64,000 nucleotides of DNA from an uncultured Gemmataceae bacterium (lineage in GTDB: Bacteria; Planctomycetota; Planctomycetia; Gemmatales; Gemmataceae): the NCBI GenBank assembly GCA_963750165.1, contig CAVVPN010000010.1, positions 224,001 through 288,000 of the forward strand, written 5' to 3'. Shown piece by piece: positions 30,248-34,851 of the stretch. The number at the start of each line of letters is the position of its first letter. Positions within the stretch are counted from its first letter, which is position 1. Under the pieces are notes generated by a model. It saw nothing but the letters and a program-made list of their open reading frames with translations, had not been told where the DNA came from and searched no databases. The position numbers and the translations under genes were made by a program.

Positions 30248-30274
30248 GAAAAGGGCCGTGCACGGCCCCTTTTC
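30248..30274. terminator. Rho-independent terminator-like hairpin
   Basis: GAAAAGGGCCGTGCACGGCCCCTTTTC just after tkt. Confidence 0.65.
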
Positions 30275-30527
30275 TGTCCGCGAAACGGCTGTCACGGGGC
30301 CCGATCGCCTGGACCGTCCGCGCCGTACCGAACGCTGCGCTGCCCGTGACCGGGCGCGCGTCCTGGTCCCACCAGGCACGCAGCCGGCTCAGCGCGCACG
30401 GCACGTGAACTCCCTGTTCGGCCGCGGAGGGCGCCGGGGGGCCGGGGTGTCGTCCAGTCTGTGGGTGACGCGCCCCGGCGGTTGGTGTATCCTGAGCTTG
30501 TCGCCGGAGCATCCACGGGGCAAATCG

Positions 30528-30788
30528 ATGTCCGCTACCGAACCACGCCTGAGTCGAGAAGAACTCGCCCGCCGGGGTGACGACACATTCACGCGGCAGG
30601 TCCGCCCTGCCCTCCGCCCGGAGGACAACGGCAAGTTCGTCGCCATCGACGTGGAATCTGGCACCTTCGAGGTGGACGAGGACGAGCACGCGGCGGTAAC
30701 CCGGTTGTACGGCCGGGTGCCCGGCGCGCAGGTCTGGCTCGTCCGGGCCGGCTACCCGGCCACCCACCGGCTGCGGGGCGGCCGGTGA
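30528..30788 (+). CDS. Small hypothetical protein (DUF5678-like), partner of the aspartic protease
   Basis: GKFVAIDVESG, VWLVRAG; GTGA overlap with the next gene. Confidence 0.75.
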   Translation: MSATEPRLSREELARRGDDTFTRQVRPALRPEDNGKFVAIDVESGTFEVDEDEHAAVTRLYGRVPGAQVWLVRAGYPATHRLRGGR

Positions 30789-31156
30789 TCCGTGGCACCG
30801 TGAACGCCAACCGCGAGCCGGTCGTCCGCCTCCGGGTTCGCGGCCCGGGCGGGGTGGTGGCGGACGTGGACATGGTCGTGGACACCGGCTTCACAGGGGC
30901 ACTGGTGCTGCCGGCAGCGGTCGTGGCCGCCCTCGGCCTGCCGTGGCGGTCGGGCGGGACGGCAGTGCTGGCGGACGGCTCGACCCAGCAGACGGACTAC
31001 TACGAGGCGGAACTGGAGTGGGGGCCGGGGTGGCTGTCGGTGCTGGCGATGTCGGTCGGCCCGGAAGCGCTGCTGGGGATGCGGTTGCTCGCCGGCCACC
31101 GCTTGGCGGTCGAGGGCTCCCCGGGCGGTTCGGTGGAGATCGTCCCGTGGCCGTGA
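30785..31156 (+). CDS. Clan AA (retropepsin-like) aspartic protease
   Basis: VDTGFTG catalytic motif, LADGS flap, LLGMRLL. Confidence 0.88.
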   Translation: MIRGTVNANREPVVRLRVRGPGGVVADVDMVVDTGFTGALVLPAAVVAALGLPWRSGGTAVLADGSTQQTDYYEAELEWGPGWLSVLAMSVGPEALLGMRLLAGHRLAVEGSPGGSVEIVPWP

Positions 31157-31246
31157 GCGCCGGCGCCCGCTACGGAGCGTAAAACCGAAAACCGAGCCTG
31201 AGCGGGCGCAACATAATCAGTGGTTCGGCAGCGCGGCCTGGCGGCG

Positions 31247-31426
31247 ATTCGGCGCAGCGACCTGTTCCGCCACTGGCTGCTCGGCTTCGGCTCCGGCGAC
31301 CTGCTCGTGAAGACCGCAGGCGCCCACGCGCAGCAGTTCGAGATGCATAATGTTCTTTTTGTCGGGAACAAGCTCCAATTGATCCAGCAGATGCTCCAGA
31401 CGCGCGAAGTGGTGAGCGGCAAATGA
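31247..31426 (+). pseudogene. Orphan 3' end of a gene
   Basis: Strong codon bias in RRSDLFRHWLLGFGSGDLLVKTAG...REVVSGK*; no credible start or N-terminal part. Confidence 0.55.
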
Positions 31427-31536: not shown

Positions 31537-32391
31537 TCAATAGCCGTCCTGCGGAAACACGTTACCCCTCGGGTCTGTTTCCCCAGCCCCCGGTAAGTCC
31601 GCGCGGGCCACCCCGTCAGCAAAGATCATCAACCACACATCCGGTTCCCGCTTGTCCTCGGGGCAGCCGTCGAGAATAAGCCCGCCGTCGGGCAGGCGCA
31701 CGCCCTCGCCCGGCCCCAGGCGGAGGCGGACCGGCGGGTAGTCGGGGGCGGCCCGCAGCCAGCGCCGGCCCAGTTCGCCCACCGACGCCGGCCCCGGAGC
31801 GTCCAGCCCCCGCGCGCGCAAATCCCGTTCCTGCCCGGGGCCCGTGAGGTTGAGGAACACCAGCGCCGTCGCCTCGTCACCCAGATTGACGCAGCCCCAG
31901 AGGCGCGGCGGTTCCGGCGGCACGGGGAGAGCCGTGGCGGGCTCCACGCCCGGCGCCAGCCCCGCCGGGCAATCGGCCGCCGCGTCCCAGCGCAGCGACC
32001 GCTGCCCCGGCCGGCCGACCACCGCCTCGGCCCACGCCCCGGGGGGCGGCGGCACCTGTTTGAAGGCTAAGAAGGCGGTGACCCGGCCCAGAAACTCCTC
32101 GAACCCGGGCAAGGGGCCGGCGCCGACCGCGCCCGCCTGGTCCAGTAATTGCCACCAGAACGACCGTAAATGCTCCGGCAGCGCGAACAGCCAGAGCCCG
32201 TCGCCGTCGCCCTCCGGGGGGGCCGTGAGCAGGGCCAGTTCCGCCCCCGTCGGGGCGAGCCAGGGTGGGCGGGGGAAGAACCGGCCGTCCTCCTCGACGA
32301 CCCCCTGCCCCAGGCGCAGCCGGGCCGGCCAGTCAGGCTCGACGTGGAAGTGGGGGGCGACCGCCAGCCGGCAGCCGGGGTGCAGGGTCAT
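31537..32391 (-). CDS. Hypothetical protein coupled to the radical SAM gene, candidate RiPP tailoring factor
   Basis: ATGA overlap with the rSAM gene; motifs VNLGDE..LVFLNL and DYPPVRLRLGPGEG. Confidence 0.75.
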   Translation of the reverse strand: MTLHPGCRLAVAPHFHVEPDWPARLRLGQGVVEEDGRFFPRPPWLAPTGAELALLTAPPEGDGDGLWLFALPEHLRSFWWQLLDQAGAVGAGPLPGFEEFLGRVTAFLAFKQVPPPPGAWAEAVVGRPGQRSLRWDAAADCPAGLAPGVEPATALPVPPEPPRLWGCVNLGDEATALVFLNLTGPGQERDLRARGLDAPGPASVGELGRRWLRAAPDYPPVRLRLGPGEGVRLPDGGLILDGCPEDKREPDVWLMIFADGVARADLPGAGETDPRGNVFPQDGY

Positions 32392-33581
32392 GCGCGGGCC
32401 TGTTCAGGGTCAAGGGTGTGGCCACCGCCTGCGCGCTCCAGCCGGTCCAGGGACACGTCGATGCAGACCTGCTTGTGCAGGCGGCAGAACAACGTCTCCG
32501 TGGAGTCGAACGTGCCGTTCTCGAAGTACTTGTTGCCCGGGGGGCCGCCGCCGCAGAACGGGAAGTATCGGCAGGTGGCCCGGCAGCGCTCGACGCCCGC
32601 CGCGACCTCGGCCGCCAGCCGCCGGTACCGCGCGTCGGCCAGCACGCGCGCCAGCGGGTCGGCGGCGACGTGGCCCACCGCGAAGTCGCCGTGCCGCGGG
32701 CTCGACAGGCCGAGCAGCTCCGGCGAGAAGGTGCTGAAGTTGCCAGCACAATCCACGTTCACGATCGCCCACGGGTTGTTTTCCTGGGTGCGCGAGCCGG
32801 CGCCGAAGCGGACGGGGTGCCGCAGGGCGCCCGCCGCCGTCTCGAATTCGCGGACCCGCAGGGGCGGGTCCGCGCCCAGGGCCAGGTCGAGGAAGCGCGT
32901 CAGAAAACGGCGGAAGCGCTCGGGCGTCCCCGCCGCCTGCAGCGACGACGCGGCGTGCGGCCCCTCGATCTCCTCGACGTTGAAGCCGACGGCGGTGATG
33001 CCGTGCGCCCCGTAGAAGTCGAACAACTCGTCGGGATAGTCCAGCGCGTCGGCGGTCAGCACGGTGATCACGTCGAAGGGGACCTGGTGCCGGTGCAGCA
33101 GGGAAATGCCGGCCAGGACGCGGTCGAGGGTGCCCTGGCCGCGGCGCGTGCGGCGGTGGCGGTCGTGCAGGAAGTGCGGACCGTCCACGCTGACGCCGAG
33201 GTGGGCCTGGTGGCGGAGGAAGTAGTCACACCACGCGTCGGTGATGAGGGTGGCGTTGGTCTGGAAGGACTGCACGACCGGGACACCGGCGGTGTTGTGC
33301 CGTTCCAGACGCCGCGCCGCGTCGTCGTAAAAGGCGACGGGCACCACCAGCGGCTCGCCCGCGTGCCACAGGAGCGTGAAGGGGTCGCGGGCGAGGCCGC
33401 TGGCGAAGACCCAGCGGAAGGTCTGGTCGAGGGTCTCCGGCGTCGCCCGCCGGGCGGACAGCCGGTCGGGCAGGTAGCAGTAGGAGCAGTCGATGTTGCA
33501 AAACGGCGTCGGCTGCAGGACGAGCAACTCCAGCGGCCCGGGGGCCGGGGCGTCGAGCGCGGCTGCGTGCCCGGGGGTCAT
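32388..33581 (-). CDS. grrM: Cyclophane-forming radical SAM/SPASM peptide maturase (GrrM/OscB-like)
   Basis: LVLQPTPFCNIDCSYCYLP, WHAGEP, FSTFSPELL, SPASM C-x3-C-x5-CGGG..NKYFENG...TETLFC. Confidence 0.92.
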   Translation of the reverse strand: MTPGHAAALDAPAPGPLELLVLQPTPFCNIDCSYCYLPDRLSARRATPETLDQTFRWVFASGLARDPFTLLWHAGEPLVVPVAFYDDAARRLERHNTAGVPVVQSFQTNATLITDAWCDYFLRHQAHLGVSVDGPHFLHDRHRRTRRGQGTLDRVLAGISLLHRHQVPFDVITVLTADALDYPDELFDFYGAHGITAVGFNVEEIEGPHAASSLQAAGTPERFRRFLTRFLDLALGADPPLRVREFETAAGALRHPVRFGAGSRTQENNPWAIVNVDCAGNFSTFSPELLGLSSPRHGDFAVGHVAADPLARVLADARYRRLAAEVAAGVERCRATCRYFPFCGGGPPGNKYFENGTFDSTETLFCRLHKQVCIDVSLDRLERAGGGHTLDPEQARA

Positions 33582-33589
33582 GGCCGTCC

Positions 33590-33931
33590 TTAAAAGTTGC
33601 GGAAGGCGCCGTTGGCGAAGCCGCCGTTGCGGAAGCCGCCGTTGGCGAAGCCGCCGTTGCGGAAGCCGCCGTTGGCGAAGCCGCCGCCGTTGCGGAAGCC
33701 GCCGCCGCCGGCGTTGCGGAAAGCTCGGTTCACGAAGGACACCGGGTAAGTGCCCTCGGCCGTTTCGACGGCCGGGGGGAGGAGGTCGGCGCGCTCCTGC
33801 GGGTCCTGCGCCGCCGCCGCCCGGGCCGCGGCCACGGGGGCCGCCGCGCAGGCGACGACCACGGCGCCGGCCGTCTGCACCAGGGCGCCCAGAAGTTCCT
33901 TGAGGAATTGCCGACGGTGTTGTCCGCTCAT
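33590..33931 (-). CDS. grrA: RiPP precursor (GrrA/OscA-like) with twin-arginine leader and 9 F-x-N motifs
   Basis: HRRQFLK, hydrophobic stretch, then core SFVNRAFRNAGGGGFRNGGGFANGGFRNGGFANGGFRNGGFANGAFRNF; 8 nt upstream of the rSAM start. Confidence 0.9.
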   Translation of the reverse strand: MSGQHRRQFLKELLGALVQTAGAVVVACAAAPVAAARAAAAQDPQERADLLPPAVETAEGTYPVSFVNRAFRNAGGGGFRNGGGFANGGFRNGGFANGGFRNGGFANGAFRNF

Positions 33932-34111
33932 GCGTCACCTGTCGTAGAGGAAGAAAGAATGGCAATGGGTGGTTTAGGCGGCGCCGCGCCGGGCGTCAAC
34001 GAGGCGCGAAAAAAAACGGCAGATTGTCGGTCCGCCCCGTTGACTTGCGTGGTAGTCCGCGCGTACAACAACGCCGTCGCATCGGTCCCCATCATTTCAA
34101 GGAGTTTGCAC

Positions 34112-34714
34112 ATGTCGCGGTGGATTCGCTGCCTGTGGCTGGTCGGCCTCGTGGCCGTGTCGGTGCCGCTGTCGGTGTCGGCACAAAAGGGGAACCAGGG
34201 CGAGATGGTCGCCAACCCCTACTACAAATTCTGGGCGGACTCCAAGCCGGGTTCGACCGTGGTCCACAAGGAAGTGTCCAGGGCGGGCGACGCCAAACCC
34301 GGGTCCGCCGACGAGGACGTGAAGCTGATCGCCCGCAAGGTCATCGAGGTGAGTCCGAAGCGGGTGGTCGTCGAGACGGTGGTGACCGAGGAGGAATATT
34401 TCGGCAGGGTGCAGGCGGCGCCGACGCGGCACATTTTCCCGGCCCAGATCCGCAAGGCGGCCCTGGAGCGCTTCCTGACCGAGACCGGCGCCAAGGCCGG
34501 CGAGGAGTCGCTGAAGGTCGGCGGCAAGGAGTACAAGTGCAAGACCCTGGCCGCCACGATCAAGGCCGGCAGCGGCGAGGAGACCCAGTACGAGTTGTGG
34601 CTGTCGCAGGACGTGCCCGGGAGCATCGTCAAGCAGGTCCGCACCACCCGCAGCCAGGGCAAGGTGATTGCGGAGACGACCATGACCCTGGTGACGTTCA
34701 AGCGGGCCGATTGA
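34112..34714 (+). CDS. Secreted hypothetical protein
   Basis: AAGGAG RBS, signal peptide, strong codon bias. Confidence 0.8.
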   Translation: MSRWIRCLWLVGLVAVSVPLSVSAQKGNQGEMVANPYYKFWADSKPGSTVVHKEVSRAGDAKPGSADEDVKLIARKVIEVSPKRVVVETVVTEEEYFGRVQAAPTRHIFPAQIRKAALERFLTETGAKAGEESLKVGGKEYKCKTLAATIKAGSGEETQYELWLSQDVPGSIVKQVRTTRSQGKVIAETTMTLVTFKRAD

Positions 34715-34737
34715 CCGGCGGCCGAATCGGGGTAGCG

Positions 34738-34803
34738 AAAAAAGGGTCGGGAGTCGATATTACGATTTTTCGGAATCGTAATATCGACTCCCGACCCTTT
34801 TTT
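34738..34803. repeat. Long inverted repeat, possible bidirectional terminator
   Basis: AAAAAAGGGTCGGGAGTCGATATTACGATT...AATCGTAATATCGACTCCCGACCCTTTTTT. Confidence 0.8.
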
Positions 34804-34851
34804 TGAACCTTTTTTTGAACTGGCCGAGCCGTTGTTGCAGATGCGTTGCCG

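Follow-up and report, generated by a model that had tools for sequence, protein, structure and literature searches.

How might a bacterium make and export a peptide with up to nine stapled rings from a gene cluster that holds neither a transporter nor a protease? The question is raised by a locus in a 64,000-nucleotide stretch of DNA, here called the window, from an uncultured Gemmataceae bacterium (assembly GCA_963750165.1, contig CAVVPN010000010.1, positions 224,001 to 288,000 of the forward strand). All coordinates count from the first letter of the window. An earlier note on this DNA described three minus-strand genes encoding a precursor (A), a radical S-adenosylmethionine (rSAM)/SPASM enzyme (B) and a third protein (C). 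This arrangement is confirmed: B starts 8 nt after the open reading frame (ORF) of A, and the start of C overlaps the stop of B by ATGA. Also as noted, no transporter or protease belongs to the cluster; none recurs among 53 clustered loci, the one exception being an efflux operon that adjoins four related loci of Alphaproteobacteria. The extent of the cluster was understated, since a fourth conserved gene, D, lies upstream on the opposite strand. The reading taken here is of a triceptide cassette of four genes, belonging to the GrrM/OscB lineage, in which A, B, C and D work together as proposed below, with a rough probability of 0.55. The genes and the parts of the precursor are as follows.

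33590..33931, minus strand: A (P0001, 113 aa), precursor with a Tat-type signal, acidic leader and Gly-rich core with nine F-x-N motifs

33809..33931, minus strand: residues 1-41 of A, Tat-type signal region (H5-R-R-Q-F-L-K, 24 uncharged residues, then A36-R-A38 / A-A-A, where signal peptidase may cut)

33785..33805, minus strand: residues 43-49 of A, leader motif D-x-Q-x-R-A, assigned from conservation in 32 homologues

33593..33736, minus strand: residues 66-113 of A, core with the nine F-x-N motifs, mostly as GG-F-x-N pentapeptide repeats

32388..33581, minus strand: B (P0002, 397 aa), predicted radical SAM/SPASM cyclophane synthase of the GrrM/OscB family, assigned with TIGR04261

31537..32391, minus strand: C (P0003, 284 aa), MicC-like double-stranded beta-helix (DSBH) pseudo-oxygenase, assigned from profile, fold and residue mapping

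34112..34714, plus strand: D (P0257, 200 aa), divergently transcribed, signal-peptide-bearing beta-sheet protein, assigned from synteny, model and fold searches

The enzyme places the locus in a known class. B matches TIGR04261 (GrrM/OscB) at 438.6 bits against a cut-off of 310, over model positions 1-363 and residues 22-383, as the earlier note had expected. It scores 308.9 bits with the AmcB model NF041718 (cut-off 425) and is below cut-off for the other listed models. Across 91 sequences the cysteines C28/C32/C35 and C333/C337/C343/C366 reach a conservation of at least 90%. Because the TIGR04261 match begins at residue 22, there is no room in B for an N-terminal recognition element (RRE) of the kind used by maturases of RiPPs (peptides made on the ribosome and modified after translation). 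In a 91-sequence tree, built by a quick method, B falls within a 30-row clade (SH-aLRT support 100), and the canonical cyanobacterial enzymes form a separate clade (96). The 30-row clade is nested in a 38-row group (94) that includes enzymes with Trp-rich precursors. Sixteen loci of the B clade make up a mostly alphaproteobacterial subgroup, in which a few small contigs carry titles of other phyla and could be binning errors. Judged from these sequences the clade spans Gemmataceae-like planctomycetes and Alphaproteobacteria, so a planctomycete-restricted host does not hold. A survey of the phylum, which the earlier note had proposed, found B-type matches (E<=1e-80) in 18 of 251 other host-family genomes, 17 of them above cut-off, and in 2 of 400 genomes sampled from the phylum.

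The precursor fits this enzyme. Its core carries one FVN, five FRN and three FAN motifs, exactly as first read. All nine Asn residues of the 51-residue core sit two positions after a Phe; 20,000 shuffles of the core gave at most six motifs, with a mean of 1.7. The encoding DNA is a tandem repeat (33596-33704) of period 15 with 7.1 copies, also seen at period 30. A is the sole ORF of the genome with at least five aromatic-x-Asn motifs in its last 70 residues. For comparison a set of 32 clade precursors was assembled, after 13 duplicate loci were dropped and three more loci excluded, one for a frameshift and two because no precursor could be recovered. Their cores hold 4-19 F-x-N motifs each, 325 in total against 12 W-x-N; the description of the peptides as Phe-only thus stands for the bulk of the motifs and fails for 5 of the 32 precursors, which carry W-x-N in addition. 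By its motifs and its neighbor the A-B pair fits the triceptides, with aromatic-x-x motifs in a precursor encoded beside an enzyme that forms three-residue cyclophanes (3-CyFE). Cores at six loci (L003-L005, L011, L013, L018) mix F-x-R and F-x-K with F-x-N, 8 of each over the 32 precursors, and these are possible alternative acceptor residues.

The chemistry has precedents. According to a review, OscB links Trp C7 to the beta-carbon of Asn or Asp, and Phe C4 to the beta-carbon of Asn (PMC11002830); Phe motifs are reported generally to give paracyclophanes (PMC11499958). OscB-type Phe-Asn cyclophanes are already published and the cassette is a conserved member of a known RiPP class. By analogy, B would very likely cross-link a Phe ring carbon to the Asn beta-carbon at some or all of the nine F-x-N motifs in the cytoplasm, with a loss of 2 Da each.

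The N-terminus of A suggests how such a product might leave the cytoplasm. The leader beginning H-R-R-Q-F-L-K, the hydrophobic stretch and the A-R-A site are present in the ORF as described, and the twin arginine is kept in all 32 homologues. Invariant throughout the set are R6, R7, G22, R47, A48 and F71. A TatFind-like rule (motif plus at least 13 uncharged residues) is satisfied by 32/32 clade precursors and by 105 of 5438 long ORFs of the host genome (about 1.9%). Phe or Leu is the consensus at +2/+3 of the twin arginine, and A-x-A sites are frequent. One clade homologue passes the twin-arginine translocation (Tat) model TIGR01409 (17.8 bits, cut-off 16.7), and the host genome encodes TatC. 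The conserved Q-x-R-A motif that follows is likely the recognition helix of the maturase. Cleavage of the signal near A38-A41 would leave about 25 acidic leader residues, including Q-x-R-A, before the first F-x-N. A signal peptidase would therefore not release a bare core, and this part of the earlier note, which had Tat export followed by trimming with signal peptidase, is to be amended. A lipobox-like V-V-A-C28 occurs at residues 25-28 of A (33848-33859). A lipoprotein reading as a family trait was set aside, the motif being found in just 2 of the 32 homologues.

The third gene has no Pfam or NCBIfam family, and its identity was missed at first. With a 99-sequence profile of C, the sole match in the PDB at E<=0.001 is MicC (9VKM, E 6.7e-14). 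The predicted model of C (pLDDT 90.8) resembles Fe/alpha-ketoglutarate (alphaKG) dioxygenases, with a best Z of 10.8, root-mean-square deviation (rmsd) 3.3 and 177 aligned residues. MicC is not listed in the fold libraries, and the link between C and MicC rests on sequence profiles. MicC, described in 2026, is a triceptide-amidating alphaKG/Fe oxygenase that cuts at Gly to give a C-terminal amide; it is inactive as H160A, D162A, H253A, R188A or K266A, and it works on the modified core, for which the leader is dispensable (PMC12912966). The accessible part of that paper reports homologues in actinomycetotal and bacteroidotal clusters and mentions neither inactive copies nor planctomycetes. In the ESM Atlas C finds unnamed clusters only, with a Kdo hydroxylase cluster (0.85) as a lead. 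One homologue (P0042) is named by its source as coming from a cultured planctomycete, Urbifossiella limnaea.

The catalytic residues of MicC are gone from C. When mapped through the printed alignment, H160, D162, H253, R188 and K266 correspond to A, G, L, T and W in P0003. K266 is unusable as a marker, being variable among intact homologues. Of 254 aligned C sequences 219 are near full length; among these His is found at the first ligand in 5, Arg in 4 and the distal His in 15, and Thr occupies the R188 position in 136. The lost positions are filled by variable, mostly small or hydrophobic residues. H, D, R and H are invariant in eight intact homologues (seven of them from rSAM loci that are more distant). 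They match MicC at E 1.3e-44, fit the C profile in the same columns with probability 99.8, and separate from the dead copies with support 100. At rSAM loci a decay series runs from intact copies, through those with the distal His only (three Myxococcota/Binatia loci) and those with none of the residues, to copies of about 185 aa from Alphaproteobacteria in which the H-x-D segment is deleted. As far as profiles and model tell, C is a MicC homologue with a DSBH fold that lacks the Fe triad and the alphaKG-binding Arg. With little doubt, given these replacements, it can no longer bind iron or alphaKG.

Could C still be catalytic, through an active site that has been rebuilt or does without metal, and process the Gly-rich core by tailoring or cleavage, for instance to separate the cyclophane units? 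Its relative cuts a triceptide at Gly, the cluster offers no protease, and the polar residues H74, E173, E229 and D251 are conserved in C. All four of the tested catalytic positions are nevertheless replaced, and the alphaproteobacterial copies lack the whole H-x-D segment. Nor was an intact paralogue that could serve as a heterodimer partner found in the host genome, or in 252 family genomes except G134, whose rSAM enzyme differs. We regard a catalytic C as very unlikely.

Intact MicC-like oxygenases (G-L-H-x-D ... R ... H-D-G) adjoin GrrM/AmcB-like rSAM genes at L019 (L124), L055, L061, L063, L084, L088 and L095, in records titled cyanobacteria, Rhodospirillaceae, Roseobacteraceae and Streptomyces and in one same-family genome. 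Those at Trp/Gly-rich loci are candidates for new amidation or cleavage chemistry of triceptides.

The dead protein has been retained. Of 34 distinct clade loci, the window not counted, 30 have C as the next gene downstream of B; in the remaining four it is on the next contig behind a B end (one), elsewhere in the genome (two), or the locus is cut (one). Metagenome loci found from C number 24, including two near-duplicate pairs, and B is directly upstream in 17, with no upstream room in 5 and B missing in 2. A metagenome scan with P0003 alone gave no match. A library of representatives gave 1207 C-profile matches at E<=0.001. In four of the homologues (P0009, P0011, P0148, P0224) the dead C domain is fused before a prolyl-hydroxylase-like 2-oxoglutarate (2OG)-Fe(II) oxygenase that keeps H-x-D...H. 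At L146:1893-3310, within a GrrM locus, a dead C is followed by a 2OG oxygenase in the same order, and in P0253 the dead domain is fused before an intact MicC-like domain. This order is as would be expected of a recruiting module. No longer fused forms were found among proteins of 586-2000 aa, which is weak evidence. Apparent rSAM-C fusion ORFs were discarded as products of other frames or frameshifted assembly.

The fourth gene encodes a protein with an N-terminal hydrophobic signal and is present in a single copy in the host genome. It stands head-to-head with the precursor gene at 15/15 same-family B loci that could be assessed, as well as in G021, in G236 and at nine Trp-clade loci. Records titled Planctomycetaceae, Isosphaeraceae, Myxococcota and Binatia show the same layout. 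D is without a Pfam or NCBIfam family. Its model (pLDDT 88.5) resembles LolA, LppX, LprG and MucB/RseB at moderate scores; Foldseek gives LolA3 at E 5.5e-5, and Z-scores are 9.5 for MucB and 9.4 for LolA. The ESM Atlas returns unnamed clusters only, with a DUF3108-like cluster (0.90) as a lead.

From these elements a pathway can be proposed. B would install the cyclophanes while the precursor is in the cytoplasm. Tat export is post-translational and leaves time for cytoplasmic modification. Going by its N-terminus, the modified precursor would probably then be exported by Tat and its signal cut near residues 38-41. The cleaved product would be a stapled polypeptide of about 72-75 residues, unless it is trimmed by a host protease. 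Judged from co-occurrence and fusions only, C was probably kept as a peptide-binding adaptor. Its most likely task, proposed tentatively, would be to hold the precursor until stapling is complete, either by keeping the signal covered or by offering the peptide to B, which lacks an RRE. Masking of a RiPP signal peptide by a partner until modification is complete has been proposed for bufferins (PMC12452194), and WprB is described as dependent on a small unannotated helper (PMC11851443). Equally tentative, and with the same basis as for C, is a role for D as a periplasmic carrier or binding protein of the aromatic-rich product, a role like the one GrrP may play in cyanobacteria. In its most specific form, in which a dead oxygenase turned chaperone grips the Tat precursor until the cyclophanes are installed and the rigid product passes through Tat to a LolA-like carrier, the scheme is speculative and rather doubtful. 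If true, it would describe a transporter-free, protease-free triceptide route whose product is not a small molecule but a stapled miniprotein of the periplasm or cell surface, and which has spread between planctomycetes and Alphaproteobacteria.

A number of observations pull against the four-gene cassette, and they fall on the precursor, on C and on D. First, A scores 16.3 bits with TIGR04260 (GrrA/OscA1), below the cut-off of 31. The search that the earlier note had suggested thus fails for A itself and succeeds for some of its kin, 4 of 9 tested clade precursors being above cut-off (33.5-44.4 bits) and 30 of 32 matching at E<=1. A has no match to the Tat models TIGR01409 or PF10518, and each of these is matched by 5 of the 32 homologues at E<=1 with weak scores. 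In the sister clade with Trp-rich cores a similar N-terminus and a dead C are found, and RR occurs in 1 of 12 complete precursors. These points lend something to a different interpretation of RR-x-FL as a recognition helix or membrane anchor, with a product that is cytoplasmic, membrane-tethered or otherwise exported; K-K-R, K-Q-R or similar replaces RR in the sister-clade N-terminus. The interpretation has to account for a twin arginine that is invariant across two phyla and followed by F/L, an uncharged stretch and frequent A-x-A sites, and for the TatC gene and a secreted partner flanking the precursor. It appears quite unlikely. The contrast between the F-x-N and Trp sister clades suggests that the export signal was switched within one lineage, and because the Trp clade keeps a dead C mostly without RR, C is not Tat-specific. 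The sister-clade loci (L042, L043, L045, L046, L048, L052, L058, L085, L089, L091 and L094) have WHNWHNW-like W-x-N cores, a dead or half-dead C, mostly D, and K-K-R/K-Q-R in place of RR.

Second, C is neither always beside B nor confined to these clusters. In G021 and G138 it is not beside B. In three genomes (G013, G019, G020; 93-97% complete) a dead C stands alone, and neither a precursor nor B was found there. No C lies within 1.5 kb at any of 12 canonical cyanobacterial loci, which means that GrrM enzymes can work without it; the third gene does differ from the cyanobacterial system, as the earlier note had said. Lone dead copies stand among housekeeping genes at L179, L181, L182 and L184, three of them in genomes without a detectable precursor or GrrM.

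The lone copies speak for another client: a non-catalytic C that serves B as stabilizer or regulator, or binds the cyclophane core once it is complete, for shielding or immunity, instead of holding the signal or leader. C is translationally coupled to B by the ATGA overlap, and since MicC needs no leader and uses the modified core (PMC12912966), an inherited pocket would recognize cyclophane cores. The split cassette of G021 points the other way. There, L183 (G021:C378:2079-4644) holds D, an RR precursor, a dead C and a second RR precursor with no B on the contig, so that C has moved with the precursors and not with B. Further, dead C co-occurs with a similar signal region in the Trp clade, where 9 of 12 precursors score at least 4 bits for that region against 2 of 23 other precursors, a comparison confounded by shared descent. 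A client other than the signal or leader is somewhat unlikely, and C as the holder of the precursor is kept as the working proposal. The rSAM gene of G021 lies on a different contig, where its neighbors are a toxin-antitoxin-like pair and a RecD-like gene (names by eye).

Third, D is absent from all loci of the alphaproteobacterial subgroup (14 with enough upstream DNA), and 104 of 252 family genomes carry distant relatives of it, members of a broad family. Fold searches give it matches of moderate quality (best Z 11.2, rmsd 3.9, 142 aligned; TM-scores 0.3-0.45), and porin barrels score like the LolA, LppX and MucB rows. The functional unit might then be A-B-C, with D a member of a large planctomycete family that is carried along by linkage. 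Yet each of the 18 D genes with the highest scores (E<1e-53; next 1e-33) faces a precursor gene, the gap in scores being partly a product of profile construction, and the head-to-head layout extends to the four other groups of records named above. A mere passenger is thus rather unlikely, and D is retained as the fourth member of the cassette.

The remaining features of the locus concern its expression and surroundings.

33971..33999, minus strand: sigma70-like promoter candidate for A-B-C (TTGACG, 17 nt, TAAACC), read by eye

34040..34069, plus strand: sigma70-like promoter candidate for D (TTGACT, 18 nt, TACAAC), read by eye

34747..34794, no strand: 20-bp perfect hairpin 3' of D with T-runs on both sides, bidirectional terminator-like

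The two candidate promoters lie back-to-back in the 180-nt gap; neither was called by a consensus scanner. GTTGAC, on either strand, was found by eye in 9 of 11 upstream regions. The hairpin after D is part of a long perfect inverted repeat (34726-34822) with A/T tails, of which contig C4 has four more copies (89% over 64 nt) and C12 a short one; it is a candidate terminator or REP-like element. As noticed earlier, the cluster is rich in GC (73.2% against 66.5 +/- 2.9% in equal-sized genome windows, the top 0.6% of 4011). Near-identical short pieces of the 5' end of A and of B are present in four soil metatranscriptome contig sets, no listed piece spanning C; such contigs cannot demonstrate transcription. 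Convergent with the cluster are a small ORF and a clan AA aspartic protease-like gene (30258-31156, plus strand), not conserved at related loci. The latter (30785-31156; 47.4 bits, under the cut-off of 57.35) was rejected as the pathway protease, being on the opposite strand and not recurrent. A 68-aa ORF without a family match (31220-31426, plus strand) is matched by RNA-library contigs of other organisms, which then diverge, and is probably a remnant of a common gene.

The clade offers a compact four-gene system in which the natural products of the GrrM/OscB family and their route of export can be tested. The full decay series of the MicC-like family is a clean case of an enzyme retained after catalysis is lost, and C is a candidate for a novel type of module through which maturases without an RRE recognize their precursors. 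Should B staple up to nine Phe-x-Asn motifs (19 at most in homologues) on a Tat-exported chain, the system could be a tool for rigid peptide scaffolds. Searches of the literature, some of them swamped by unrelated uses of the terms, found no account of triceptide export by Tat, of MicC homologues without activity or of OscB clusters in planctomycetes, though primary OscB papers or their supplements may list them; the accessible parts of PMC10288494 and PMC10885120 hold nothing bearing on this cassette. We could not find a description of three of its features: the invariant twin-arginine signal, the retained pseudo-oxygenase and the LolA-like partner.

Among known systems the closest are OscA/OscB and the cyanobacterial GRRM system (GrrA TIGR04260, GrrM TIGR04261, GrrP TIGR04262), whose maturase is of the same family as B. 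Their precursors are likewise Gly-rich, with many aromatic-x-Asn motifs including FAN/FGN/FVN repeats and a leader helix, and have hydrophobic, signal-like N-termini without RR. The difference is therefore one of Tat-type against Sec-type (general secretion) signals and not of export itself, and the claim that the locus departs from the cyanobacterial system holds for the RR signal and for GrrP, which gave no match at E<=0.001 in the host genome (93% complete), and not for the F-x-N motifs, Gly-rich cores and signal-like N-termini common to both. The clade here is set apart by its separate enzyme clade, invariant twin arginine, nearly pure F-x-N cores, dead C and secreted D. MicC, of the minviopeptin mic cluster, is a homologous DSBH protein likewise encoded beside a three-residue cyclophane synthase (PMC12912966). 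C differs from it in lacking H160, D162, H253 and R188, and the cluster here has no ADP-ribosyltransferase. Bufferins and related MNIO RiPPs (PMC12452194) are alike in using a general-secretion signal, no dedicated transporter and a partner proposed to mask the signal; theirs is a Sec signal with Cys thiooxazole chemistry and an unrelated partner, whereas here the signal is Tat-type and cyclophanes are predicted. Finally, LolA, LppX and MucB/RseB are open beta-barrel periplasmic carriers that the model of D resembles in fold, without a sequence-level family match and within the range of TM-scores given above.

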